A DNA stretch of 27,703 bases from Nanobdellati archaeon (GCA_013152815.1 JAADFO010000053.1:1-27703); one strand, 5' to 3'. Counted from the stretch's first letter, positions 1,206 through 26,823 are shown. The notes: generated from the sequence alone by a model not told the origin. Numbers and translations: made by a program.

Positions 1206-1635
1206 GTATCGAACAGAGGGCAAGACTCCCTATTAATTAATTTTTTGGATAGGATAACAATCAGACGACAAAGGACAAAAAGTCTTCAGGAGGATGATCC
1301 AACAGACAACGGGCTGCTCTCCAGATCTCCGACCTTCAAGATGTGCAGAACCAATCTTCAATGCATTTACAGCAGCAGGTTTCTTTGAGCATCTCAGAAT
1401 CAGGTCGAATACGTCGTTTCAACCGATACGGACGGCAGCGATGGCCGGATCTGAACGAGCAATCGCTCTTCGCGACAAGAAGAAGAAAGCAGAAGAGAGG
1501 ATGAAGTGAAATTCTGATATTTTTCGGAATCCTTGCGGGAAATCTTTTTATTTCCATATGGAAAGGATAAGAGTAAGCACTCTCAAGTAAGAAATTATTT
1601 TAAAGAAGAATCCATTCCTTAAAGGGGGGATCACA

Positions 1636-2790
1636 ATGGGACAAATCAACATCATCGAGTCTGGGCTGTATACACATCGGAGCTACAATTTTCCCAGACA
1701 ACAATATTTCAATCTTTTCAATGCGAGAGCAGCAATAAAAAGAACAGCCTCATCCGATCTAGAGAAGAAGATCATCTCATCTTTTTATTATCAAGGACAA
1801 ATCGACAAGACACGTCCAGTTCAGACAGGCACATTCAAGTTAAGGTCAGAAGAAAGCAGACAATATTCCCTGGACATCACCGATTATATCATCGAGATGC
1901 TCTCTGATTCCGCTCTCCGGGATGAAATCAATGAACATCTTGGCAGATCAGGTCGTGAACCTGAAGAATTGAAACCAAGCCGGAAAGATATGGTGATCAC
2001 CAGCGGAAGAATAAGCGATATTCATGTCAGGGAAGTAAGAGATGTCAAGAACGAACTACGACCATTCTCCATTTCTGATCCGCATGGGGCCACACTGGAA
2101 CTCAAGGATCTTTTTTCTGGAAAAGAATATCATTCGGATCGAAGAGAATTCTCTCCAGGCATTTCAGATGTCCTTCAACAGCCAGATTCCCTTTTTGCAT
2201 TAGCATTTCAGAAAGCAGAATCCAACCAGACGGATCTAGAAGAATTCAAGAGAGCATATCATCCTGAGATACGTGATATGGTATATTCTCCCGAAGACAA
2301 ACATGTTGTCTTCTTCGAAAACATGAGAGCGAACATCGATCTTCAGATGAACATAGCAGCAGTAGCAAGTTTCAATACACAGGCATACAGGTTTTTTTCA
2401 GGTAAGACAAAAGTCAATCGCAAAGCAGACATAGTCATACCTGCAAGAATCAATGTTGATGCAATCCTTGATCCGGTCTATCACTATCCCTTCGCGATCA
2501 GGTTCAATTCTATCAAAAACATGGCGTTCTCAGATCATCTCCCGAGAAGGCGTGTTAAAGTCAACCAGGTATATGATAAGTCAAAGACAACAGAGGAAGG
2601 GAATAGTGTATTCTGGACCTGGTTTAGCTACTCGAGCATTTTCACGCAGGTAGGTAGTTACCTGATAGGTCATGCAAACAATCAACCGTTTTTGGGATCG
2701 GTGCTCGGGGGGCTTGAAGTATCTGGAATCATCGGACTCATCGCCACAGTGTATCATCTGAAAAATAAATACGTCCAACAGCCGTGGTGA
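1636..2790 (+). CDS. Hypothetical protein, 384 aa, with C-terminal hydrophobic/glycine-zipper TM segment(s) (FLGSVLGGLEVSGIIGLIATVYHL). First gene of a three-gene operon.
   Basis: Long ORF in an AT-richer block. A G-rich SD-like element (aaaggggggatcacaATG) and a TATA-like aaattattttaaag lie ~35 nt upstream. No recognisable catalytic motifs. Confidence 0.7.
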   Translation: MGQINIIESGLYTHRSYNFPRQQYFNLFNARAAIKRTASSDLEKKIISSFYYQGQIDKTRPVQTGTFKLRSEESRQYSLDITDYIIEMLSDSALRDEINEHLGRSGREPEELKPSRKDMVITSGRISDIHVREVRDVKNELRPFSISDPHGATLELKDLFSGKEYHSDRREFSPGISDVLQQPDSLFALAFQKAESNQTDLEEFKRAYHPEIRDMVYSPEDKHVVFFENMRANIDLQMNIAAVASFNTQAYRFFSGKTKVNRKADIVIPARINVDAILDPVYHYPFAIRFNSIKNMAFSDHLPRRRVKVNQVYDKSKTTEEGNSVFWTWFSYSSIFTQVGSYLIGHANNQPFLGSVLGGLEVSGIIGLIATVYHLKNKYVQQPW

Positions 2791-2799
2791 AACAATAAG

Positions 2800-3588
2800 A
2801 TGGCAGACGACCTCATGGCGAAGAAGAATCTCGAGAGGATCCTGAACAACACGTCTATCGGTAAGATTCGCCAGATCGAATCCTTCTTTAATTTTAGTCT
2901 CGACGATCAAAGCTACACGGCAGAAGAAAAGCTCGCGTTCATCAAGAGCTACACGATTGTCAAGAAGAACGCTGCTGCCCATTCTGCCAGCAAAGACCTC
3001 ATCCATGAACAGAAACAGGCCGATCTTGAAGTGGAAGACTATAAACACGAGAAATCCATGGAACTTGAAGCGGCAAGGTTCAAGGCGCTCGACTACACAC
3101 TCACCAAATTCTTGGGGATGCTCGCTGAGAATAACCAGAGTCAACTCAAACAGATCGAAAGCAAGTTCAACGAGATAAGCGAACAAGCAAAAGGGATCAA
3201 GCTGCTGCCTGAACATGCGAGCACCATCCCTTCTGAACATGATGATGCTTCAGAATATGTTGCGTTGATGCCCACCTATTCAAATTGTTGGAGAAAACAT
3301 GACGATGGTCATGCCGGACCAGAACACGCCATCCTGACCATGACCGCCAAAGATGGGCTTCATATGCGCTGTCTCGTTGCATACGCTGCTCAAAATCCGG
3401 GAGACAAAGGATTTGCACGATTGAAATACCAGATATTCCACGAAGAACTTTTGCGCCAGGGAGATTGCCCCAGGCCATACAGCCGCAGCATCTCCCGCAG
3501 GATTCCAGGCATCAGTTGGCTTCTTACAAAACCCGGCATCTGCCCCTTAGCTGATGGCAAAGAACACGTCATAGCATACAACACGTAA
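2800..3588 (+). CDS. Hypothetical protein, 262 aa. The N-terminal half looks coiled-coil-like; the C-terminal half is Cys/His-rich (NCWRKHDDGH, HMRC, GDCP, GICP).
   Basis: ORF begins 10 nt after the stop of the previous gene and ends 1 nt before the next ATG (operon arrangement). No recognisable family motifs. Confidence 0.65.
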   Translation: MADDLMAKKNLERILNNTSIGKIRQIESFFNFSLDDQSYTAEEKLAFIKSYTIVKKNAAAHSASKDLIHEQKQADLEVEDYKHEKSMELEAARFKALDYTLTKFLGMLAENNQSQLKQIESKFNEISEQAKGIKLLPEHASTIPSEHDDASEYVALMPTYSNCWRKHDDGHAGPEHAILTMTAKDGLHMRCLVAYAAQNPGDKGFARLKYQIFHEELLRQGDCPRPYSRSISRRIPGISWLLTKPGICPLADGKEHVIAYNT

Positions 3589-3589
3589 A

Positions 3590-4528
3590 ATGAACCTCAT
3601 CCCAGACAGTAGCTTTATGGATCCCGAAGATGTCAAGCTAGAGGGACTCATCAACGCCGCTCAGGATGAGATAGCAGGTGCAAAAGACCCGAAGATCTAT
3701 GTCGTCAACCTCATCGAAGACATCTTCCATCCGAACATGAAGAAACTCATCGCACAGATTGATGCCTACGGAGACCCCGGGAAGTCGTTAATACCTTTCT
3801 TCCAGGACCACATGAATGCTGCAAGCTTTCTCAACAGCATCGGTTATACCTCTTTCAGACCAGACGAAGTCGCAAGGCTCTTTAATGTAGTCACAAGGAT
3901 GATCATTGAAGATTCCATTCGCTCCAATAATGTTGAGCTTGATAACCTGATCGTTCCTGACATGCTTTCCCGAGAACTGACAACCAAGACAAACCAGAAG
4001 TTACAGACCATTGAACAAGATATCTACTTCAATCCCGAAGAACTCACACAGTATGGATATCTGAGGGATAAGGCTTTTGATTTCATGGACCGCCAGTCCG
4101 GAGAGTTAGATTATGATCTCCTCTTTGACCAAGGCATGAAAGATCTTAAAGTCGGACAATCACATAAAGAACACATCTACCTAAAATATTGGTTGACGCA
4201 GGCGTTCCTGCACCATGAAGGGATCATACACCAGGACACCATCGAAAGCATGGCTCAACTGAAAAGAACCTACAAAAAACAAGCAGAAGAGTATCTTGAG
4301 CAGCTTAGAGAAGAAGGCGGTCCGGTCTCTGCAACCGACAAGAGAGACGGGGCTCTCATGATCAAGAATATGCATCCCACGTATAATGCGGGCAACTATG
4401 CAGGAAAGTTCATGCAATTCAGAGAACGTAAGATCCTGGCCGCGTTAAAGGAGTTAGGCATCTGCAAGGGAGAAGGCGCTTTCCCGAACATGCAAGATAA
4501 GTCCAGAGATACGCAAAAATTCTGCTGA
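3590..4528 (+). CDS. Hypothetical protein, 312 aa, soluble, no recognisable domain. Third gene of the operon.
   Basis: The ATG overlaps the preceding stop (taaaATG). Long ORF with the same low-GC composition as its operon neighbours. Confidence 0.65.
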   Translation: MNLIPDSSFMDPEDVKLEGLINAAQDEIAGAKDPKIYVVNLIEDIFHPNMKKLIAQIDAYGDPGKSLIPFFQDHMNAASFLNSIGYTSFRPDEVARLFNVVTRMIIEDSIRSNNVELDNLIVPDMLSRELTTKTNQKLQTIEQDIYFNPEELTQYGYLRDKAFDFMDRQSGELDYDLLFDQGMKDLKVGQSHKEHIYLKYWLTQAFLHHEGIIHQDTIESMAQLKRTYKKQAEEYLEQLREEGGPVSATDKRDGALMIKNMHPTYNAGNYAGKFMQFRERKILAALKELGICKGEGAFPNMQDKSRDTQKFC

Positions 4529-4727
4529 TCATTCTCGATCGACAGACGGATGGATTGCTTCATTTTATGGCCATAATCATGCACACAACCATTATAACCT
4601 ATACTTTGGAGAGGTTGTTTTTATGGGTTTCGTCCGAGCCACACTAAACCATTCAGGGACGAGAAAGTGCTTGAAGTGCGACTAGGAGCCATCCCAATTA
4701 CGACTCTTACAGATCCTAACACAAAAT

Positions 4728-5096
4728 TCATTTCTTCTTATAGCCGAATAATTTATTGTATTTATCATGATCCAGATACTCAAGAATAAATGCAATTATT
4801 TCTACTTCGTCACCAATAAGCGTATAGAGAAGCCTCCAATAGCCGACAAGTTCAACTCTAAAAAGTTTATCTGTTCCGTAACGATTGGCAACTTTGTTAT
4901 TTATGTATTTCCTGGGTATCAAATCACCAAAATAAGGATTTGCTTTTATGTTTCGAATGGCTGTATTAATTGAAGTGAGTAGTTGTTCATATGTTGGCTT
5001 CTTATTTATCTTTTTTCCTTTGGCAACGCATTCTTGTAACGCCTTAAACTCTTCATATGCTTCATCATCAAATTTCACAACTACTTGCTTATCCAT
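4728..5096 (-). CDS. RelE/ParE-family type II toxin.
   Basis: C-terminal ...KLFRVELVGYWRLLYTLIGDEVEIIAFILEYLDHDKYNK matches the RelE/ParE pattern [FY]R..LG.YR[LI][LI]Y.[VLI]...V.I..I..R...Y, as in archaeal aRelE. The N-terminus begins VVKFDDEAYEEFKAL. Its start lies 1 nt after the stop of the upstream small gene. Very AT-rich. Confidence 0.65.
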   Translation of the reverse strand: MDKQVVVKFDDEAYEEFKALQECVAKGKKINKKPTYEQLLTSINTAIRNIKANPYFGDLIPRKYINNKVANRYGTDKLFRVELVGYWRLLYTLIGDEVEIIAFILEYLDHDKYNKLFGYKKK

Positions 5097-5097
5097 C

Positions 5098-5382
5098 TTA
5101 CATTACAGTGACCGCTTTCTTAAGCTTAATTTTTAGCTTATTACTTATGTCCTCTTTGTAGATCCAGATTATTCCTGCCTCTAGCATTGCAATCTTTCCG
5201 CTCTCTTCCAAATAAGATAAGATCAGATTCAATGTCGGTCTCATTATTTTCTTGGCAAGTCGTCTATCTATTTCATTTTTGGATAATGGCTCTTTTGCAG
5301 CTTTCATTATAGTCTCCACATTAAGTATAGTATCAAGCCGCGGGTAATGTAAAACTCGTTTCAATGCTTGCATCATAGTCAC
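5098..5382 (-). CDS. Putative antitoxin or transcriptional regulator with a winged-helix-like region (LSKNEIDRRLAKKIMRPTLNLILSYLEESGKIAMLEAGIIWI), cognate partner of the RelE/ParE toxin.
   Basis: 94-aa ORF immediately upstream of, and co-directional with, the toxin (1-nt gap). A BRE/TATA-like aaaaggtttatatat sits ~45 nt upstream on the minus strand (about 5408-5422). Confidence 0.5.
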   Translation of the reverse strand: MTMMQALKRVLHYPRLDTILNVETIMKAAKEPLSKNEIDRRLAKKIMRPTLNLILSYLEESGKIAMLEAGIIWIYKEDISNKLKIKLKKAVTVM

Positions 5383-5768
5383 CTATAAACTTATATCATA
5401 GCATAAGTACATATCATATATAAACCTTTTCTTTCTAGAGGAGACAGTGACCGTAAAGGTATAACCCAGAAGAGCTTTTTAGGACAATGAAACCGACTAT
5501 CTTGAATGAGCCCGGAGATGCGCAGACACCCCATAATATGCGCAAATACTTCATAATATGTATGTGTGCTTGAGGGAAACCATAGGTTGACCGAAACATA
5601 CTTCGGGCTTCAGGATCGAAAAAGTACAGTGCACGGCAATCAAAGATTGCTGGCATCCCAAAAATCTAGAGATTTTTGAGGACAACCGCTAGGTTGCGAA
5701 CAGATCTGAGCCCAGAGATACACAAAAATTTCTGATTCTTGGATATCCCTGTCTCATTTCCAAGAAAA

Positions 5769-5884
5769 TGAGCCCAGAGAGATTTGAACTCCCGACCCCA
5801 CGGTTACTTTCGGACAGCGTCTGAAAGGAGCAGACGCCAGTCTGCTAAGAGCCGTGTGCTCTAGCCAGGCTGAGCTATGGGCCC
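5769..5884 (-). tRNA. tRNA-Lys(CTT) with a ~41-nt intron at the canonical 37/38 position; no encoded CCA.
   Basis: Reverse complement folds by hand into a cloverleaf: acceptor GGGCCCA/TGGGCTC plus discriminator A; D-arm GCTC-AGCCTGGCTA-GAGC; anticodon stem CACGG/CCGTG with loop CTCTTA[intron]A, giving anticodon CTT; variable GGGTC; T-arm GGGAG-TTCAAAT-CTCTC. Confidence 0.85.
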
Positions 5885-16516: not shown

Positions 16517-16909
16517 TTACCTTAGTCTTTTTTTGATATGTTCAACCAGTGGTTCAAACAACGCCTGTGATATGGCGAGGGCATTTTCAGCTTCTTCTGG
16601 TCTGGGTTTATATCCGTAGTAGTTAATGTTGTGTCTCAGTCTCCTCATGTTATCGAGGATGCTTAGCGGTCGGGTAGTGTTCACTTTTAAGGTAAGTAGC
16701 TCCTTGATGGGCGTTATATGGTCTTCTGATTCGATGCCTTTCTCTGTCAGCAACGCATCTCCAAGCATCCTGAAGGATTCGTAGATATTGCGGATGATGG
16801 TTGCAGAAGATTCTTCTGTGACTGGCAGGGAAAGGGTGAACTTCATATCCCGTTCAGCAGCCTGAAGAATGCTCAGTGCATTTTTCCGGTCTGGTCTTTT
16901 ATACCTCAT
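16517..16909 (-). CDS. HEPN-domain protein, putative toxin of a HEPN/MNT pair.
   Basis: 130-aa all-alpha-looking protein with a C-terminal ...NMRRLRHNINYYGY segment resembling the HEPN R-x(3-6)-H motif. Its ATG overlaps the stop of the upstream MNT gene by 4 nt (ATGA). AT-rich. Confidence 0.55.
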   Translation of the reverse strand: MRYKRPDRKNALSILQAAERDMKFTLSLPVTEESSATIIRNIYESFRMLGDALLTEKGIESEDHITPIKELLTLKVNTTRPLSILDNMRRLRHNINYYGYKPRPEEAENALAISQALFEPLVEHIKKRLR

Positions 16910-17493
16910 GGTCTGACCTCCAAGAACCCCTCAAGCACTATGCCGTTTGCAATATTTGAGAATAAATTTATGTCTATCTTGTTGCGTGTGAATATGTGTA
17001 GATTAACAGGAACATCTTTTCTATATCCGAACCTGGGCATCCTGCCCATCTCGATTATTCTCACATCTTTATCGCTATTCACTTCAACTGCTATGTCAAC
17101 ATCACTTTTTTCTGTATCATCCCCTTTTCGGTAGCTTCCGAAAAGCACTATCGCGTTTGCGATGCCCACGATCTCCTGTATTTGGTTTTTTAGACTCTTG
17201 TTGTAAGCTTCAAACACCATCGATAGGTTGAACGCAATTTTTTTTGTGTAATTGTAAGGATGACTCCGGTTGCACGCAATCCGCCAAGCTTTGCCATACA
17301 CTTTTTTTATTAAGAATTCTTCTTCAACCATCCTTTCTACAATCTTCTTTGCAGTCGTTTTTGATATCTTGAGATACTCAGCAAGATCATTTAATCCCGC
17401 TTCCGTCTCGGGAAAAGAGAAAAACCAGGAGAGCACCTTATTATAGGCTTCATTTAGTTCAACCAGTCCAACATTTTCCAATCTCTTCGGCAT
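16906..17493 (-). CDS. Minimal nucleotidyltransferase (MNT) with an N-terminal winged-helix DNA-binding extension; putative antitoxin of the HEPN/MNT pair.
   Basis: NTase motif LFGSYRKGDDTEKSDVDIAVEV (GS...DxD). N-terminal region LAEYLKISKTTAKKIVERMVEEEFLIKK is wHTH-like. Lies upstream of the HEPN gene with a 4-nt overlap. Confidence 0.65.
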   Translation of the reverse strand: MPKRLENVGLVELNEAYNKVLSWFFSFPETEAGLNDLAEYLKISKTTAKKIVERMVEEEFLIKKVYGKAWRIACNRSHPYNYTKKIAFNLSMVFEAYNKSLKNQIQEIVGIANAIVLFGSYRKGDDTEKSDVDIAVEVNSDKDVRIIEMGRMPRFGYRKDVPVNLHIFTRNKIDINLFSNIANGIVLEGFLEVRP

Positions 17494-17647: not shown

Positions 17648-17666
17648 TAGCCCCGCCCGGATTCGA
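17648..17666. repeat. Direct repeat A: 19-nt copy of the 3' end of tRNA-Gln (tagccccgcccggattcga); attL/attR-like.
   Basis: Identical to 23570-23588 (the genuine tRNA 3' end plus 2 nt of flank); a third partial copy lies at 23477-23494. Confidence 0.7.
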
Positions 17667-17716: not shown

Positions 17717-20700
17717 CTAAAGGGGATCATTGCCAGCCAATGAACCATTTGAAATTGGCCTGGGCTCAGGCGGAAGAGAATATGGATCGTTCTCATAACC
17801 ATGATTAAAGGGGGAAATGTTTAAGACTTTACCATCCACCACCAAAGTACTGCTCCCTCCCGGATCAAAGCCCATTGCATGAACCATGCCGTGTTTTAGG
17901 AGTATCCTTGCCATGTCCCTATGTGTGGCGCCGACTGACTCTCTAATACGCCCATTAACCACTAAGACTGAAAGATCTCCTTTTTTATCCAAGCCAACGG
18001 CAATCTTCGGACCTCTCATATCAACATAGTCGACACGCGCAGCTTGAGTTTTGATGGAGTTGCTTGATTTCCATCCTTCCCTTTCCATTTCAATCCTGAT
18101 TTTCTCATTTTTCAATAACATTGGTCCCGCTTCGATGCCATGCATTGTCTTATTGAACTCAGTCATAGTAATTGAGACCTCTGACCCGATATCCCAGCCT
18201 GTTGGAGCCTTGTTTCTAGGGAAAGAAAGGGTCAATCCGACCGGAATGATGCTCAGTCGCTCCCCCTGTTTCGTTTTGATGATTTCCTTGATAATGTTTC
18301 CTGCCAAACGATAGATCACCCTCCCATTGCCTTCGATGGTGTCTTCAGTGTGCATGAGATCATAAAAGCAGGGATCATCGCCTGGGTTCTTTCGGTTGTA
18401 GTGTTTTTTGGTTAACACACAAGCATGACGATTATGTGAGATAATCATCCCCTTGGAGCAATTGACTCGTCTGATTTCCAGTTTACCGGTAGAGTGGAAT
18501 AATATCGCCGGCTTATTAAAGAGGGGTGGAGAAATTATTCTATTGTCAGAGATCACCAGTCCCAGAGGACTACCCACATATGCTTTTGACAAGCCAAGTT
18601 TCCCAACAAGTTCTGCATTGAGAATGTACCCGCCATTCCACACAATTCGTGCTTTGCCCTTGTATCGACGCTCAAAAAGCTTTATGAAATGTTGAGCCGC
18701 GTGAGGTAGGTGGTTGCTAAACGAAGCATTAAACGTCCATTTCTTCTTAGCGTTGCTTAAGTTGGCTTTCGCAAGCACACCCGACCAAGGAAGGCCGTCA
18801 ACGTAGACTCCGCGCACATAGGAATATTCTACATCATCCTTTCCTTTTTTTCTTTGTTTATCGATTTTCTTCAATACGGTCATGACAGGAGAACCCTTTT
18901 CCTCAGCATCCTTTCGAAGAATGTTGAGTATCGATTTCTCCCCATGTTCTTTGCATAATCGTTTATACAGCTTACTATGAAAAGCATTCGAGAACTCTGA
19001 TGCTGTCTGAATGGGAGTAGGGTATGCTATTGTCGGCCGTAATCCCGGGGGAACCCATTCGACAAATCCCGAATCAAGCGGAATTCCCATTACCTTTGAA
19101 GTGAGTATATCCTTCACTTTTCCGATATGAAATGTTTCCAGATCCACAATATCGGTCATCATCGCTGAGTGTTCTCCAAACGTCATGATGTATCCATGAT
19201 GCTTTTTCACATAGCTGAGCGTATTCAGCGCATCCTTCCCTAACTGTCGGAAGTCTATCCCAACAGACATTTGCTCACTCGTGACAATTTTGCAGACATC
19301 ATGTTTATAAAGAAGCCTCAGTTCATGGTTTTCTCCGAGCAACAGATACTCACGCAATTCTTCAGCAGTGAAATAATTACCGAGGGGTTTTCGTTGTTTA
19401 ATGATGAAAATAGGTGCCAGTTTCTTCCTTAGCAACTCTTTTTCAGTTATGGGTTGCTCAAGGCTCAAACCAAGTCGCTCTCTTACGGTGTGTACGATGA
19501 AAATCTCCAGTTCATGTCTGATATATTTGCCTGGAAAGTAGGCAATCGGCACATTGCTGCGAAGTTTCTTAATTAATCGAGAACTATGATCAATGTGCAG
19601 ATTAGAACAATCAGCTAGTTGACAAAAAGCATTCCGTATATCGGTCAGGTGGTGGGGACGTCTTTCGTATCTGATTTTCAATGCGGAGGGATTAATAATT
19701 GAATTAAAGAGAAGGTTAATGACACCAGTTATTTCCTGATGAGTAAATTTTCTATATGGGAAGAGATCTTTATTTCTATGCCTATACGAGAAAGAATGGT
19801 CTATCCTCACAGAGATAGAGCCCTTTTTATAATGGAAGATATTATCAACGCAGTTATAGAATGCATGTCTTTTTTCTTTTGAGATATACTGGGTCTGGTT
19901 ATAGCTGTCAATAAGATATTTCGCAAATTGGAATGCTCTCCCTTTTATTTCCTGTTCCTCGACGCGGAAATAACTTGGATCAATAAGAGATTTAAGATAG
20001 ATCATAAAAGCCATTTTCCCATATCCCGGGAGATATTGGCGGTTTTTTTTATGAAGGATATCCTTCAGCGCAGGATAAGTTCTCGTCAATCTCCGTTCAT
20101 ACTTAACCATCTCTGAAATCGTTGCTTTCATCCCCTGCCGCCGGGGAAGAAGCTGAAGATATAGGCTATGGAGTATAGACTCCATGTTCTTCCGCAGGTT
20201 CTCCATGTTGTATCTTCTTTCCGCTACCTGTCTGTTGTGGTCCGCATCAACCAGATACTCATGAGGATGAAGTATTCTGCTGGCTATCTCATGGATGATC
20301 GAATGGGTGATCGAGTTGGAAAATTCAATTACGCGCAACCGCTGGCCGCTGGATAGATGCTCCCCGATAACTTCCGCATACACCTGGACAGGATAATATC
20401 TTCTCGTGAAGATGGGAGAGCGACTTGCAGCCGATTCAATGATCGGAAGACCCCTCCCTTCGGTTTCACTCGGAAGAAGAATCAAGTTTGCAATATTGTA
20501 GATATCCGAGATATCTATCGGATTAGAGAATCTTCTTTTGAATTCAGGTTTATCAGTCTCAGAAAAGGTGAAGGCCAGGAAGATTCTGTCTTTTAGACCT
20601 GAGGGGATCGTTTTAAGTGACGCGGAGAAATCAGAGAGGAGCTTCTTGAAATATGAAGCATGACCTTCTGCAATAGGCCCGGTAATCAATAAAGTGAGGG

Positions 20701-21868
20701 TAAGCCTCTTGTTGCTCTTAAAAAACAGAGTGAACTCCGGATGATGAAACAATTTATTGATCAACGTAAAGTTAACTTCGATCTTTTTTCGCTCGATGAT
20801 TCTGGTGGGTTGGAGAAAGACAATATTATTTTCTATAAAGTCAATTGTGCCTTTCTTAAAACCTGTTATGAACGGCGCGGGAGAGGTATCAAATTTATCG
20901 CCCTGCAACTGATCAATCGGCGTTACAGAAAGTTTTCTTTTATATCGGCTTAATATTCTTGAAATCTGGATGAATGTCTCTATTTTTCTTCTTTCGGTAT
21001 TATTCTTAAACTCATCCAAGTCGATTGCTGTTCCAATTTCGGCTATATTTGCCGGATTGTGGCCAAAGCGTTCTATTAAACATTTCGACTGAGCAGTGTT
21101 TATATTCACAGACATCCATGTCGCGGATTCCCAGGGAAAGATTACGTTGATAACTGAAAAGAATTCACCAATATCTGAATTCGTGAAGAAAAAATCTCTC
21201 GGGCCGGGTTTTAAGCCTTTTGTCTTGATGTCTATCTTTTTATTCCCGCCTTCCCAATAAAAATCGTGATTATTGCTGAGAACAGGAATATTCAGGTATT
21301 CCGAGAGAAGAACACAAGCTAAGGCCAATGACACATTTCCAGGATTTGAATTTACGTTGAGAAGATAGAGGAGTTGAATGCCATTCTTTTCTATATAACT
21401 GCCAAGCTTTTCGCAGATGACAAGAGTTTCCTTCCAGAACCTTTTTATTAGGTTGTTGTATATAGTGCCGCCTCGAGAAATTTTTTTATGGAAAAAATCA
21501 TCGTACAGGTCCCATTTTTTGAAACCGTTTATTTCGTCAATTTGGAATTTTTTTATGTCGGGCTGGATCAAGTGGCTTGACTCAGGATAGAATTCTCCAG
21601 CGATATAGTGAATTTTTTGCGTGTTCAGGATAGATCTGAAAATTTTAGCATATTTTGCGCATTCCATGGTGACTCCATCAATGGCATAATAGAAAGTAAC
21701 GAAGGCAACTCCCTTGGCTATGTGCTTCTTAAAATTTTCAAACGTCCCTTCAAATTGGATCGGCGGAGCGGTTCTTCTATCGCGTAATCTATCAATGAAC
21801 AGGCCTAGATCGAACCATGTAGCGATCTTCTCTGACTTTAATCTGTTCATCATTGATTTTGTTTCCAT
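17717..21868 (-). CDS. Giant (1383 aa) multidomain glycan-modifying protein. N-terminal/central GT-B (GT4-like) glycosyltransferase region, ~500 aa of unassigned sequence, and a C-terminal phosphodiester-glycosidase (NAGPA 'uncovering-enzyme'-like, DUF2233) domain.
   Basis: GT4 E-x7-E-type block PSETEGRGLPIIESAASRSPIF. C-terminal IAVGLDKKGDLSVLVVNGRIRESVGATHRDMARILLKHGMVHAMGFDPGGSSTLVV matches the phosphodiester-glycosidase pattern TAIG..DG.L.LVVVDGR...G.TL.ELA.LM..LG...ALNLDGGGSST. Confidence 0.7.
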   Translation of the reverse strand: METKSMMNRLKSEKIATWFDLGLFIDRLRDRRTAPPIQFEGTFENFKKHIAKGVAFVTFYYAIDGVTMECAKYAKIFRSILNTQKIHYIAGEFYPESSHLIQPDIKKFQIDEINGFKKWDLYDDFFHKKISRGGTIYNNLIKRFWKETLVICEKLGSYIEKNGIQLLYLLNVNSNPGNVSLALACVLLSEYLNIPVLSNNHDFYWEGGNKKIDIKTKGLKPGPRDFFFTNSDIGEFFSVINVIFPWESATWMSVNINTAQSKCLIERFGHNPANIAEIGTAIDLDEFKNNTERRKIETFIQISRILSRYKRKLSVTPIDQLQGDKFDTSPAPFITGFKKGTIDFIENNIVFLQPTRIIERKKIEVNFTLINKLFHHPEFTLFFKSNKRLTLTLLITGPIAEGHASYFKKLLSDFSASLKTIPSGLKDRIFLAFTFSETDKPEFKRRFSNPIDISDIYNIANLILLPSETEGRGLPIIESAASRSPIFTRRYYPVQVYAEVIGEHLSSGQRLRVIEFSNSITHSIIHEIASRILHPHEYLVDADHNRQVAERRYNMENLRKNMESILHSLYLQLLPRRQGMKATISEMVKYERRLTRTYPALKDILHKKNRQYLPGYGKMAFMIYLKSLIDPSYFRVEEQEIKGRAFQFAKYLIDSYNQTQYISKEKRHAFYNCVDNIFHYKKGSISVRIDHSFSYRHRNKDLFPYRKFTHQEITGVINLLFNSIINPSALKIRYERRPHHLTDIRNAFCQLADCSNLHIDHSSRLIKKLRSNVPIAYFPGKYIRHELEIFIVHTVRERLGLSLEQPITEKELLRKKLAPIFIIKQRKPLGNYFTAEELREYLLLGENHELRLLYKHDVCKIVTSEQMSVGIDFRQLGKDALNTLSYVKKHHGYIMTFGEHSAMMTDIVDLETFHIGKVKDILTSKVMGIPLDSGFVEWVPPGLRPTIAYPTPIQTASEFSNAFHSKLYKRLCKEHGEKSILNILRKDAEEKGSPVMTVLKKIDKQRKKGKDDVEYSYVRGVYVDGLPWSGVLAKANLSNAKKKWTFNASFSNHLPHAAQHFIKLFERRYKGKARIVWNGGYILNAELVGKLGLSKAYVGSPLGLVISDNRIISPPLFNKPAILFHSTGKLEIRRVNCSKGMIISHNRHACVLTKKHYNRKNPGDDPCFYDLMHTEDTIEGNGRVIYRLAGNIIKEIIKTKQGERLSIIPVGLTLSFPRNKAPTGWDIGSEVSITMTEFNKTMHGIEAGPMLLKNEKIRIEMEREGWKSSNSIKTQAARVDYVDMRGPKIAVGLDKKGDLSVLVVNGRIRESVGATHRDMARILLKHGMVHAMGFDPGGSSTLVVDGKVLNISPFNHGYENDPYSLPPEPRPISNGSLAGNDPL

Positions 21869-22109: not shown

Positions 22110-22144
22110 TACTGAAGCGCGGGGTATGAAACCCATTGCATGAA

Positions 22145-23305
22145 TCATTTTTTTGCTCTTTTGAAATCTTTTAAAGCCTTTTTATAGGCAGCTTCATAGT
22201 CATCGACCATCCTTTCGACTGTGAATTTCTCCTGGACGTGCCTTCTACATTCCATGCGGTCAATCTTATCGATGTTTCTCAGTGCAGCAATCAACCCTTC
22301 AATATTAGGTTTTCCTTGCTTATTCCATGGTTTAACTATGAATCCTGTCTTGCCTTCATCAACTATTTCAGAAACAGACCCCCTATTGAAAGCAATAACC
22401 GGTGTCCCGCAAGCCATTGCCTCTATCATTACCAGTCCGAAAGGTTCTTCCCATTGAATAGGAAACAAGAGAGCCTTGGCGTTTCTTGCATATTGGAAAA
22501 CTAGTTTCCTTGGTAAAAAGCCCCTTTTCGTGATCTTTCCTTTGATGAATGGCTTTATTTTTTTATCCCAATACTCTAATTGGTCACTGTGAGGTTCCCC
22601 TAACAAAATCAGTTTATTGTCGGTCTTTCTGGCGACCTGGATTGCTTCAGAGACGCCCTTCTCTTCCCGGAACCTGCCAATGAACAGAAGATATTCACCG
22701 GTTTTTGTAGAAAACTTTATTTTCTTTAGATTGCTTAAACCATGATAAATGGTTGCAGCATAGTTTAGATTCGGAAGTGGCTTTCTTTGAGAGTCACTGA
22801 TGGAAACGTAGTATTGGGTGTTAGCATAAAACTTTAAGATTTGCTGGTTGTTGTAAGAATCTAACGGAGAATGCAGGGTAGAGATCGTAGGGATCGAGAC
22901 AAGCGGAGCATAATAAGCTGTCCTGATATCAAAATGACTATGGATAATATCAAACTGCCCCTTCGCGGCCATTTGGTAGGCTTTAGAGATTAAAAGATGT
23001 TCATAGGGTATATGATTCTTAACACCGGTGTTTCTATCACTGAGACTATCCTTCTTTGTAACGCTGACTAGACGCGCAGAAGTCTTTGAGTTACCTGAAG
23101 CGAATAGAGTAACATCGTGGCCCCGTTTTATTAATTCTTCAGAGATATCGTATACGACAGATTCGACAGCTCCGGCCCGCCCTTGCTTCAGAAATTTTTT
23201 AATTGGAGGAATCCTAATAAAATTTGAAGCAAGCATTGCAATTCTCAGTTTTTTCATGTTATCAGGCGATTTCAATTGTTTGCATACATCATAAATTGTT
23301 TGCAT
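22145..23305 (-). CDS. GT4-family (GT-B fold) glycosyltransferase.
   Basis: Canonical C-terminal block EEPFGLVMIEAMACGTPVIAFNRGSVSEIVDEGKTGF. N-terminal ...KKLRIAMLASNF... suggests the true start may be the internal MKKLRIAML, 16 codons downstream. Confidence 0.9.
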   Translation of the reverse strand: MQTIYDVCKQLKSPDNMKKLRIAMLASNFIRIPPIKKFLKQGRAGAVESVVYDISEELIKRGHDVTLFASGNSKTSARLVSVTKKDSLSDRNTGVKNHIPYEHLLISKAYQMAAKGQFDIIHSHFDIRTAYYAPLVSIPTISTLHSPLDSYNNQQILKFYANTQYYVSISDSQRKPLPNLNYAATIYHGLSNLKKIKFSTKTGEYLLFIGRFREEKGVSEAIQVARKTDNKLILLGEPHSDQLEYWDKKIKPFIKGKITKRGFLPRKLVFQYARNAKALLFPIQWEEPFGLVMIEAMACGTPVIAFNRGSVSEIVDEGKTGFIVKPWNKQGKPNIEGLIAALRNIDKIDRMECRRHVQEKFTVERMVDDYEAAYKKALKDFKRAKK

Positions 23306-23313
23306 ACATCATA
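23275..23313. repeat. Tandem duplication of 19 nt (attgtttgcatacatcata x2, period 20) overlapping the annotated ATG of the GT4 gene.
   Basis: Seen directly. Supports the internal start for the GT4 gene, with the repeat lying in its 5' leader or promoter. Confidence 0.6.
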
Positions 23314-23348: not shown

Positions 23349-23474
23349 TCAGATCATACAATCAGTTCTGACTGAATCTCTTCTGTCACGAAGTCCATCG
23401 ATGAATAACCCTGGATCAAACCACGTTGAGATCTGCTCTGATCTCAATTCCTGCATCATCTGTTTTACAGTCAT
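23349..23474 (-). pseudogene. 41-codon fragment paralogous to the 5' end (N-terminus) of the giant gene at 17717-21868.
   Basis: Own translation MTVKQMMQELRSEQISTWFDPGLFIDGLRDRRDSVRTDCMI* versus giant N-terminus METKSMMNRLKSEKIATWFDLGLFIDRLRDRR..., about 70% identical. DNA is also ~70% identical (23398-23470 vs 21790-21862). It ends 2 nt from att-like repeat B. Confidence 0.6.
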
Positions 23475-23476
23475 TC

Positions 23477-23494
23477 TATAGCCCCGCCCGGATT
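23477..23494. repeat. Direct repeat B: 18-nt partial copy of the tRNA-Gln 3' end plus flank (tatagccccgcccggatt).
   Basis: Identical to 23568-23585; 93 bp from the genuine tRNA 3' end. Confidence 0.7.
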
Positions 23495-23569
23495 GCTTTG
23501 CTGCCAAAAACGCCAAGCGTTTTTGAGCATGATCGAACGCGTGCTGGAAGAATACTTTCGAAGAAAGTA

Positions 23570-23687
23570 TAGCCCCGCCCGGATTCGAACCGAGGTCCCG
23601 ACCTGTCTCTCAACAGAGAGGCGCTCAGAAACGCCTGCGTTTCTGTTGTCCAGAGGGTCGGATGATTGGCCACTACACTACGGGGCT
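23570..23687 (-). tRNA. tRNA-Gln(CTG) with a ~45-nt structured intron at position 37/38; A1-U72 acceptor pair; no encoded CCA.
   Basis: Reverse complement AGCCCCG-TA-GTGT-AGTGGCCAA-TCAT-C-CGACC-CTCTGG[intron]A-GGTCG-GGAC-CTCGG-TTCGAAT-CCGGG-CGGGGCT-A. The 5' half closely resembles archaeal tRNA-Gln as I recall it (AGCCC...GTGTAGTGGCC.ATCATCC). The intron contains two hairpins (gaaacgc/gcgtttc and ctctc/gagag). Confidence 0.8.
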
Positions 23688-23820
23688 GTTGGTGTCAGTT
23701 TTGGGGCTTGACGAGCCCTGAATTGCCGAACGATGCCGTTCGGGCATATTCATCGCGAGGAAACCCCATTCGCATCCTGTGGGCGAAAAGGTGACTTGCT
23801 ATGCAAGGCACCGAGCACAG

Positions 23821-23855
23821 CTACACTACGGGGCTGCGTGTTGTCAGTTCTGGGA
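23821..23855. repeat. Duplicated copy of the tRNA-Gln 5' end (first 15-16 nt, ctacactacggggctg) plus ~20 nt of its 5' flank.
   Basis: 23821-23855 compared with 23673-23706: 16 identical nt, then (t)tg(g)tgtcagtt(c/t)tggg. 135 bp of unrelated sequence separates the copies. Confidence 0.6.
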
Positions 23856-25754: not shown

Positions 25755-25835
25755 AACATCTTTATTCTCTCTTCCATCCACTCTTCTCCCGAGATCACCA
25801 TCTTGCTGGGCCCTTCTTCTTAGCACCCAATACTA

Positions 25836-26013
25836 TACCAAAAGGTATAAATACCAGATGGTATAAAGATACGATCGATGACCGAAAAGTATTTATATCT
25901 CAGTATACAAAAAGGTATATAGACCATATGGACTATCAGCGATCGATACGCAAAACATATATATGAGTATACTAAAAGGTATATAGGCCAAACGGTATAA
26001 GCGTGATGCGACA
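25836..26013 (+). repeat. Degenerate tandem array of ~67-bp units (about 2.7 copies), each with a BRE/TATA-like core aaaaggtata(a/t)a(t/g)(a/g)cca.a.gg and a gatcgat box.
   Basis: Unit starts (tac.aaaagg) at 25836, 25905 and 25971. The core resembles the promoter upstream of the RelE toxin-antitoxin operon (aaaaggtttatata). The array is intergenic between rpl35ae and the ATPase gene. Confidence 0.6.
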
Positions 26014-26823
26014 GTGAGCAGGGAAGCGACAACAGAGCAGGAATTCTTAGACAAGCATAGGTTCTCCTGTCTCACAGGACCCCTTCGTTCAGGCAAGACC
26101 TGGCAGCTCAGGAAGCATCACGACCATGCCGCTCTTTCTCTGTTTCTCGACCTTGAGCATTTCCCTCTGAGCCCGGAACTGTTCTCAATAACGCTTCTCG
26201 CCGAACTCAGGAACGTCGCACCCATCAAAGACAAGGCAAACATCGGCTTCATCGAGAACGAACTGGAAAAGATCAAGCCTGACCAGAAAGCCATCCTGGA
26301 AAGGGCGTTCGCTCTCCTTGACATCGTCGCCAAGGAACAGGGAAAGGAACTGCAGCTGCACCTCGACAATGTCGAGAGGCTCTTCGACCTGGAGAACTTC
26401 AGGGGCATCAGGGTCATGCCCTACCTCTCTGCCCTGAAACAGACAAAGGTGGCAGGAACCTCCAACTATCCCTCTTTCTGCAGAGAGAAGCTGAAAGGCT
26501 TCTCCTTCGAGACCCTGGCACACAGGACAGCAGGCAGGGAGAAGCTCGCCGCCTATTCTGAAGAGGGCCTGGTCTGCAGGCTGCACCTGGAACGGTCGCT
26601 GGGAAGGGCAAGAGGACAGACCCTGCTTGCAGCGCTCCTCCCCATCATCAGCGGGCAAGCAGCAACATTGACAGAACTGTCCAGGAAGATGTTCAGGTCT
26701 GCCCCGGTCACCAAATCATTATTGCAAAGGCTCATGGACGTCGACCTCATCGAGAGGAGGGACAGGAAGTTCTACATCAAAGATCCCCTGATGGACCGGT
26801 ATTTCAAGGAGGTGGAACGATGA
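26014..26823 (+). CDS. Archaeal-type P-loop ATPase (Arch_ATPase-like Walker A GPLRSGKT) with a probable C-terminal winged-helix (DUF234-like) domain.
   Basis: Walker A in the GxRRxGKT-like form characteristic of the archaeal ATPase family. C-terminus LLQRLMDVDLIERRDRKFYIKDPLMDRYF resembles the DUF234 wHTH. 269 aa. Confidence 0.55.
   Translation: MSREATTEQEFLDKHRFSCLTGPLRSGKTWQLRKHHDHAALSLFLDLEHFPLSPELFSITLLAELRNVAPIKDKANIGFIENELEKIKPDQKAILERAFALLDIVAKEQGKELQLHLDNVERLFDLENFRGIRVMPYLSALKQTKVAGTSNYPSFCREKLKGFSFETLAHRTAGREKLAAYSEEGLVCRLHLERSLGRARGQTLLAALLPIISGQAATLTELSRKMFRSAPVTKSLLQRLMDVDLIERRDRKFYIKDPLMDRYFKEVER

Follow-up and report, generated by a model that had tools for sequence, protein, structure and literature searches.

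A GT4-like, DUF89/ARMT1-like and NAGPA-like three-domain fusion on a tRNA-Gln islet of a Nanobdellati archaeon

The three-domain gene and its protein

The 27,703-nucleotide (nt) sequence JAADFO010000053.1:1-27703 (assembly GCA_013152815.1) from a Nanobdellati (DPANN) archaeon, a complete contig of its metagenome-assembled genome, which in its entirety we call the window, carries on its minus strand a complete open reading frame (ORF) of 1,383 codons that encodes, in one polypeptide, a GT4-like glycosyltransferase domain, a DUF89/ARMT1-fold phosphatase-like domain and a NAGPA-like phosphodiester-glycosidase-like domain (Table 1). The gene is real and is a single fusion, its NCBI start being at Met7 (1,377 residues; P0001, a 100% identical database copy). 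An earlier interpretation made from the DNA alone, here called the sequence-only reading, had allowed for a frameshift or an assembly chimera joining separate genes, and some database representatives do consist of the last two domains only (P0247, 816 residues; P0308, 787 residues). However, about 120 independent homologs of 1,377 to 1,476 residues, drawn from many phyla, have identical domain order and length and are colinear with 98 to 100% of the window protein, so that such an artifact is already refuted, with a negligible chance of being true after all.

Conservation is spread evenly along the entire length and is about equal for the three domains. In what follows, counts out of 120 refer to close homologs and counts out of 30 to divergent representatives that are 18 to 30% identical to the window protein; the putative catalytic residues of all three domains persist in the latter. 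The databases currently name members of the family "phosphodiester glycosidase family protein" or "hypothetical" only, and no paper on this fusion turned up in literature searches; the family is conserved and uncharacterized. The protein is predicted to be soluble and cytoplasmic, because its N terminus is charged and hydrophilic and no 19-residue segment resembles a membrane span, the highest hydropathy value (1.82) falling inside a Rossmann core. Neither the signal peptide nor the transmembrane segment that the sequence-only reading had suggested looking for was found in the window protein by this hydropathy scan, which is not a dedicated predictor.

Table 1. Features of the three-domain gene and of the surrounding islet, in window coordinates
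Feature	Coordinates	Strand	Remarks
Three-domain ORF, complete	17717..21868	-	1,383 residues plus stop codon, ATG start; colinear with ~120 full-length homologs
GT-B, GT4-like retaining glycosyltransferase domain, residues 1-572	20153..21868	-	AlphaFold2, Foldseek, NCBIfam
E470-x7-E478, nucleotide-sugar motif of GT4 enzymes	20435..20461	-	conserved; C-terminal Rossmann domain
DUF89/ARMT1-fold phosphatase-like domain, residues 575-1008	18845..20146	-	no Pfam match in window protein
D690-H-S-x-x-Y-R-H-R-N699 loop, candidate mobile lid	19772..19801	-	putative analogy to lid Asp195 (PMC9062747)
D760-H761, candidate DUF89 Asp-Asn nucleophile/metal dyad	19586..19591	-	end of first Rossmann strand
G898-E899	19172..19177	-	aligned with [KRS]-G-[DE]-x-N-[YF]-x-x-L; putative equivalent of DUF89 Gly-Asp363
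NAGPA/DUF2233-fold phosphodiester-glycosidase-like domain, residues 1012-1383	17720..18835	-	
D1335-P-G-G-S1339 loop	17852..17866	-	variant of NAGPA DGGGS motif
tRNA-Gln(CTG), 45-nt intron	23570..23687	-	aragorn -i; Rfam RF00005, 39 bits; 3' end 23570-23588 is proximal attachment (att) site
Distal att-like copy, exact 19-nt repeat of tRNA-Gln 3' end	17648..17666	-	50 nt downstream of ORF stop
Internal degenerate att-like copy, 16/19	23479..23497	-	abuts paralog fragment
36-codon remnant, 5' end of paralogous large gene	23367..23474	-	tblastn E=3.7e-9; family hidden Markov model E=2.9e-10
Ordinary GT4 glycosyltransferase	22145..23305	-	PF00534 4e-28, PF13439 9e-15

The GT4-like domain that had been proposed for the N-terminal half is borne out by structure, although its Pfam match stays below threshold. 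An AlphaFold2 model of residues 1 to 590 (predicted local distance difference test score [pLDDT] 89.8) has the GT-B fold with its two Rossmann domains, and its Foldseek neighbors in the PDB are retaining GT4 enzymes, namely, HepE (4xso; 3.7e-14), sucrose-phosphate synthase (SPS), MshA, GlgM, BshA and PimB'. PF00534 matches residues 448 to 495 with E=4.8e-4 and 20.1 bits against a cutoff of 26.4, a value that is reached in four of the seven full-length homologs scanned (26.7 to 35.2 bits). The top NCBIfam match is the mannosylglucosylglycerate synthase MggS (NF041101; residues 343 to 565, E=3e-12), and because the score of 45.9 bits compares with an equivalog cutoff of 640, the window protein is not an MggS ortholog. 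The E-x7-E motif lies in the block ETEGRGLPIIESAASRSPIF (residues 468 to 487), with E470 invariant and E478 at least 90% conserved among the 120 homologs and each present in 28/30; the Arg/Lys pair that is a hallmark of GT4 enzymes (P354-T-R356...R360-K361) is invariant or nearly so, and the motifs SNPGN and NNHDFYWEGG are specific to the N-terminal half of this family.

The roughly 500 residues between the two recognized domains, which the sequence-only reading had left unassigned, can now be given a fold. A model of residues 575 to 1383 (pLDDT 90, predicted template-modeling score 0.89) resolves two domains, for each of which Foldseek independently yields the same set of matches, and the middle one combines a helical lid module with a Rossmann-like sheet, as in DUF89/ARMT1. 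Pfam scans of the window protein and seven homologs left this region without a match at E<=1, and PDB sequence searches with the full-family profile, the middle-domain profile and the middle domain of P0337 gave no DUF89 match, so that the assignment rests on structure; P0337, a divergent member, has a weak match to PF01937 (E=5.9e-4, 19.6 bits against 25). On the basis of the model, the middle domain is predicted to be a strongly diverged version of the DUF89/ARMT1 fold, on which metal-dependent phosphatases are built. A search of 1.84 billion representative proteins with its profile matched 118 sequences. All are either proteins of about 1,380 to 1,560 residues that carry the domain in the same place or shorter, probably partial sequences, and no ordinary DUF89 protein was retrieved. 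The domain is, by this result, private to the fusion.

The active site of the DUF89 protein Duf8901 of Schizosaccharomyces pombe is formed by Asp195 of the lid; by Asp248, which is the nucleophile, and its neighbor Asn249, both directly following the central strand; and by Asp286, Asp363 with Leu364, and Lys401, a set that includes a metal Asp and a Gly-Asp general base (PMC9062747). In the window protein, the candidate lid Asp, D690, is found in 120/120 and 30/30 sequences, and pLDDT is low at residues 117 to 123 of the modeled segment, the strongly conserved loop being flexible. D760 of the candidate dyad is present in 117/120 and 26/30, and position 761 is occupied by Asp (61), His (30) or Asn (29). 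In divergent members, a segment [KRS]-G-[DE]-x-N-[YF]-x-x-L aligns at residues 897 to 905; we take its first part to resemble the DUF89 signature KGDxNY, which would hold Asp363-Leu364. This alignment led us to reject an alternative placement of the DUF89 acidic residue at F778-P-G-x781. D906 (28/30), G870 and R944 are nearly invariant even at 18 to 30% identity, and R944 is a possible candidate for the counterpart of the DUF89 Lys. Two active-site types run through the family, D-H...G-[DE], which includes the DPANN clade, and D-[DN]...R-X, found in most other close homologs: His761 occurs only together with Gly898 and an acidic residue at 899 (30/30), and Asp or Asn761 mostly with Arg898-X. 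This covariation fits the two sites meeting in one pocket.

The C-terminal domain bears out the NAGPA-like domain of the sequence-only reading both by fold and by profile, since PF09992 matches residues 1233 to 1355 with E=5.9e-18 and 66 bits against a cutoff of 25. The block IAVGLDKKGDLSVLVVNGR...GFDPGGSSTLVV is present at residues 1289 to 1344, and a PDB sequence search with the C terminus matched Slr0280, vertebrate NAGPA and DUF2233 proteins. Its loop reads DPGGS in 120/120 close homologs, keeping the Asp, the Gly-Gly and the Ser of DGGGS; in divergent representatives, the second position is Pro in 24/30 and Gly in 2/30, D1335 is kept in 26/30 and R1307 in 30/30. Around the loop, the blocks NSIxTQAAR, MRGPKIA and NGRIRESVGATH are invariant in the family. 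In NAGPA, the DGGGS loop is reported to be strictly invariant, with D286 catalytic and the backbone NH of G287 contacting the N-acetyl group of N-acetylglucosamine (GlcNAc), and every substitution tested (D286A, G287A, G288A, G289A and S290A) disrupts exit from the endoplasmic reticulum (ER) or abolishes activity (PMC13474241). As the loop is DPGGS and not DGGGS, the substrate need not be GlcNAc; judged from these residues, the domain looks functional, and its sugar specificity probably differs from GlcNAc.

The same residues bear on a different possibility, namely, that one or both of the C-terminal domains are noncatalytic and serve regulatory, scaffolding or ligand-sensing roles on an active glycosyltransferase. 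A DPGGS loop would be in keeping with this, given the outcome of all tested substitutions in the NAGPA motif (PMC13474241), as would a DUF89-like domain that is variable at the Asn249 and Gly-Asp positions and scores below every Pfam threshold. However, these two domains are the most conserved parts of the protein (70 to 78% column identity), and clusters of invariant Asp, Arg and His residues are retained in them even by members as little as 18% identical, as is usual for active sites, so we consider a noncatalytic role unlikely.

Distribution of the family and the tRNA-Gln islet

One genome per GTDB species was scanned, giving 438 stretches with relatives of the fusion (about 0.24% of species), and taxonomy was taken from the best 80. 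Almost all of these 80 come from bacterial metagenome-assembled genomes (MAGs), mostly of Bacteroidota, with further representatives in Chlorobiota, Calditrichota, WOR-3, KSB1, Anaerolineales, Gemmatimonadota and Desulfobacterota-type lineages; the one archaeon among them is a Woesearchaeota MAG. This architecture, which the sequence-only reading had believed to be uncharacterized in archaea, is no archaeal specialty, being instead a widespread bacterial family within which the DPANN copies form a narrow clade. The nearest relatives of the window protein are a Woesearchaeota protein (85% identity) and a JGI metagenome protein (75%), all others being at most 55% identical, and in a neighbor-joining tree the two archaeal sequences make up one short clade within the bacterial radiation. 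Nucleotide similarity to the Woesearchaeota contig (83.5%) covers the coding region only and ends exactly at its limits, the flanks being unrelated, and the three DPANN copies have no genomic context in common. From these comparisons, the DPANN copy appears to have been acquired horizontally from bacteria.

In the 80 related loci, the gene is found singly, amid housekeeping genes. Its recurrent neighbors (VanZ, a HemW-like radical SAM protein, RpiB, NadA and Rrf2) reflect Bacteroidales synteny, and in these loci no conserved partner gene recurs outside Bacteroidales and no glycan cluster is present. Downstream of the homolog in three loci (L009, L012 and L059) lies a predicted multipass membrane protein of about 500 residues that resembles a sodium:solute symporter by eye only; it is the sole transporter-like neighbor, and three loci are too small a number to carry weight. 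Plasmid and IMG/VR viral-contig collections contain no member of the family, and a phage collection gave just two short matches to the NAGPA core (5% of the query).

In the window, the gene lies on an islet, which the sequence-only reading had described as att-flanked, bounded by the 3' end of a tRNA-Gln gene and an exact 19-nt repeat of it; the chance expectation for such att-like repeats is 0. The islet cargo consists of the large ORF, one GT4 gene and one gene remnant, the second GT4 and the paralogous fragment of the sequence-only reading both being confirmed. The 36-codon remnant is 65% identical to residues 1 to 34 and has Pro in place of the invariant L21; a second candidate paralog trace at 22113-22148 ("MIHAMGF") was dropped as not significant (E=3.1 and 6.2). 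The nearest named relatives of the islet GT4 are from bacteria of the candidate phyla radiation (48 to 52% identity), and it is not coconserved with the large gene, being absent from the 80 related loci. An exact 20-bp tandem duplication (AATTGTTTGCATACATCATA x2; 23274-23313) covers the 5' end of its ORF and creates alternative ATG starts, so that an ORF finder gives 386 residues and NCBI gives 370.

The GC content at third codon positions (GC3) is 0.40 to 0.45 in the islet genes and 0.69 to 0.74 in core genes. No integrase or recombinase was found among the ORFs of at least 80 residues between 11.9 and 25.5 kb that were scanned against Pfam, and the islet has the look of what repeated insertions at the tRNA left behind. 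Immediately beyond the att-bounded segment, at 16517-17493 on the minus strand, a nucleotidyltransferase (MNT) with an N-terminal winged helix and a HEPN protein form a toxin-antitoxin-like pair with overlapping stop and start and a foreign GC3 like that of the islet genes (0.44 to 0.49). About 130 nt upstream of the intact tRNA (~23818-23832, minus strand), 15 nt match the 5' end of tRNA-Gln exactly (AGCCCCGTAGTGTAG), perhaps as the relic of a tRNA or as part of an att region that has been rearranged.

Topology, genomic context and the lack of a sugar-phosphate transferase together decide the fate of the function that the sequence-only reading had attached to the fusion, which it likened to mannose 6-phosphate tagging, with a sugar phosphate placed on a surface or S-layer glycan and then uncovered, the whole perhaps forming part of a variable surface-glycan cassette. 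The NAGPA-fold domain at the center of that proposal is real, and the GT4 domain shares the islet with a second GT4 gene. However, GT4 enzymes transfer the sugar itself and not a sugar 1-phosphate, and the Stealth/phosphotransferase families are unmatched anywhere in the protein (scans of the window protein and seven homologs at E<=1 gave no Stealth family of Pfam), including the middle region, which is DUF89-like and for which a check of the Stealth motifs CR1 to CR4 had been proposed. Since it has neither signal peptide nor transmembrane segment and would hence be cytoplasmic, the NAGPA-like domain could not act directly on S-layer or surface glycans, and a cassette is contradicted by the solitary gene and by a second GT4 that does not travel with it. 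The tagging hypothesis is, on these grounds, already largely refuted, and we regard it as very improbable.

Some further features of the window lie apart from the islet. Both of its tRNA genes have long introns in the anticodon loop, that of tRNA-Lys(CTT) (5769-5884, minus strand) measuring 41 nt and that of tRNA-Gln(CTG) 45 nt; both were missed by ARAGORN in its default bacterial mode, and an Rfam gathering scan of the whole window returned tRNA-Lys only. A 12-nt copy of the tRNA-Lys 3' end (TGAGCCCAGAGA) is located at 5707-5718, 62 nt downstream of that gene, and on the same side a low-GC block (~0.42) at 1500-5500 includes three ORFs without a Pfam match (1636-2790, 2800-3588 and 3590-4528); the block and the copy may together constitute a second tRNA-associated islet. 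The interval that separates a kinase-like gene from the ORF at 26014-26823 contains three direct repeats (25824-25995), imperfect and ~38 nt in length, with spacings of 70 and 64 nt; each holds a TATAC...GTATA palindrome and a AAAAGGTATA core, and together they may represent a regulatory or iteron-like array.

Possible functions of the fusion

The reading that we tentatively favor, while giving it somewhat less than an even chance, is that a single soluble metabolite, of the sugar-phosphate or nucleotide-sugar type, would be processed by the three domains one after another. In this scenario, the GT4 domain would condense a nucleoside diphosphate (NDP)-sugar with a phosphorylated small acceptor to form an alpha-glycoside, much as sucrose-phosphate (SPS), mannosylglucosyl-phosphoglycerate (MggA) and GlcNAc-inositol-phosphate (MshA) synthases do; the DUF89-like domain would strip off a phosphomonoester group; and the NAGPA-like domain would hydrolyze a glycosyl-1-phosphate linkage, either as a maturation step or in turnover of the donor or product. 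The NAGPA fold is one used for cleavage of the C1-O bond on the sugar side of sugar-1-phosphodiesters, and as this chemistry leaves a phosphomonoester, which a phosphatase consumes, glycosidase followed by phosphatase would be the natural order. The prominence of small-molecule glycosyltransferases among the matches, MggS in NCBIfam and SPS, MshA, BshA and GlgM among the top folds, supports this reading. Moreover, given that the three domains are strictly fused and that the gene moves without partners, the protein probably amounts to a pathway complete in itself, one that might serve, for instance, an osmolyte-like glycoside.

Alternatively, the protein may control nucleotide-sugar pools or limit damage to them, with the NAGPA-like domain splitting an NDP-sugar, perhaps an aberrant one, into sugar and NDP, the DUF89-like domain dephosphorylating the product and the GT-B domain mainly binding the nucleotide-sugar. 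An NDP-sugar has the same sugar-1-phosphate linkage that NAGPA cuts; the uncovering enzyme also hydrolyzes UDP-GlcNAc, and DUF89 enzymes also occur fused to biosynthetic enzymes such as PanK4. DUF89 enzymes are furthermore described as damage-control phosphatases (PDB match descriptions; PMC9062747). However, the full conservation of the GT4 catalytic motifs argues for real transfer and not mere binding, and housekeeping repair would not be expected in so patchy a set of species (about 0.24%), which makes this role improbable in our judgment.

Another possibility is that the protein edits or recycles lipid-linked intermediates on the cytoplasmic side of the membrane. Here the NAGPA-like domain would release the sugar from a polyprenyl-(pyro)phosphate-sugar, polyprenyl pyrophosphate would be the substrate dephosphorylated by the DUF89-like domain, and the GT4 domain would act peripherally on a lipid-linked acceptor. 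Polyprenyl-pyrophosphate-sugars do contain linkages of the sugar-1-phosphodiester type, many GT4 enzymes are peripheral membrane proteins with lipid acceptors (PimB' and WaaG being among the fold matches), and the middle and C-terminal domains each or together hold several invariant arginines that would suit (pyro)phosphate binding. Against this, no membrane-binding segment was detected in the protein, envelope-biosynthesis genes are not linked to it, and the top sequence and fold matches are mostly small-molecule glycosyltransferases; we doubt that such editing is its role.

Several points weigh against the serial action of the three domains on a soluble metabolite. GT4 enzymes with lipid or polymer acceptors (PimB', WaaG and glycogen synthases) are among the fold matches too. 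In the window protein, the middle domain is below every Pfam threshold and has His at the equivalent of the DUF89 Asn249, and in about half of the family, Arg-X replaces the Gly-acid pair; the correspondence with DUF89 residues, moreover, follows secondary-structure order and motif alignment and not superposition, and its equivalences are to be read as putative. The DPGGS loop is without the backbone NH that touches the GlcNAc N-acetyl group in human NAGPA, so that its chemistry may differ or be lost. To our knowledge, no compatible-solute pathway uses a NAGPA-type enzyme. Finally, the tree that places the archaeal copies was a quick neighbor-joining one without support values.

If the domains nonetheless act in series, the fusion could amount to an unrecognized cytoplasmic pathway in one polypeptide, the first cytosolic role of a NAGPA fold, joined to a cryptic DUF89-type phosphatase and a GT4 enzyme, that makes or remodels a novel sugar-phosphodiester or glycoside, such as an osmolyte, in sediment-dwelling Bacteroidota and their relatives and that is sufficiently portable for a DPANN archaeon to have captured it as a one-gene islet; this fuller proposal is speculative, and we hold it to be rather unlikely as a whole. 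An intracellular NAGPA fold locked to a glycosyltransferase and a phosphatase-like domain points to unexplored sugar-phosphate metabolism, and one recombinant protein offers three concrete activities to test. The family also adds a very divergent branch of the DUF89 fold that Pfam profiles miss, and the apparent transfer of a 4.2-kb gene from bacteria to DPANN archaea at a tRNA-Gln att site bears on metabolic gain by genome-reduced archaea.

Comparison with known systems

The islet resembles tRNA-targeted integrated elements in its direct repeats of the tRNA 3' end, its foreign composition and its tandem arrangement with a degenerate internal att copy, but it differs from them in that no integrase or mobility gene was detected among the neighboring ORFs scanned against Pfam, its cargo is tiny and the family is absent from the plasmid and viral-contig collections searched. 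With the GT4 small-molecule synthases MggS, SPS, MshA, BshA and GlgM, the window protein has in common the GT-B fold, the E-x7-E motif and the Arg/Lys pair, whereas it falls under the PF00534 threshold and has its own motifs in the N-terminal half. Fusions such as SPS-SPP carry a HAD-type phosphatase; the phosphatase-like partner here has instead the DUF89 fold. The pairing of synthase and phosphatase nevertheless recalls the two-step mannosylglucosylglycerate route, in which the synthase MggA is followed by the phosphatase MggB (PMC3736172).

Compared with DUF89/ARMT1 phosphatases (PF01937; PDB 2q40, 2g8l, 2ffj, 3pt1 and 7t7k), the middle domain of the window protein shows no significant sequence similarity, has about 100 extra residues between its two acidic motifs and was never found free-standing, in addition to the His at Asn249 and the Arg-X variant of Gly-Asp in about half of the members.

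As far as we know, what is understood of phosphodiester glycosidases comes from the lysosomal uncovering enzyme alone, the bacterial relatives having no assigned physiological role. Human NAGPA is a type I membrane protein of the trans-Golgi network with a signal peptide, whereas the domain of the window protein, compared here with NAGPA and bacterial DUF2233 proteins (PF09992; PDB 6pkg, 6pku, 3ohg, 5h3k and 6ozd), carries no signals for an extracytoplasmic location, is predicted to be cytoplasmic and forms the C terminus of a 1,383-residue fusion; by hand mapping, the residues aligned with the NAGPA phosphate and sugar ligands E226 and T260 also differ. Each of the three domains belongs to or resembles a known fold family, the protein being neither a bona fide MggS nor a Pfam DUF89 member, and the NAGPA-like domain deviates from NAGPA in both its defining motif and its location.

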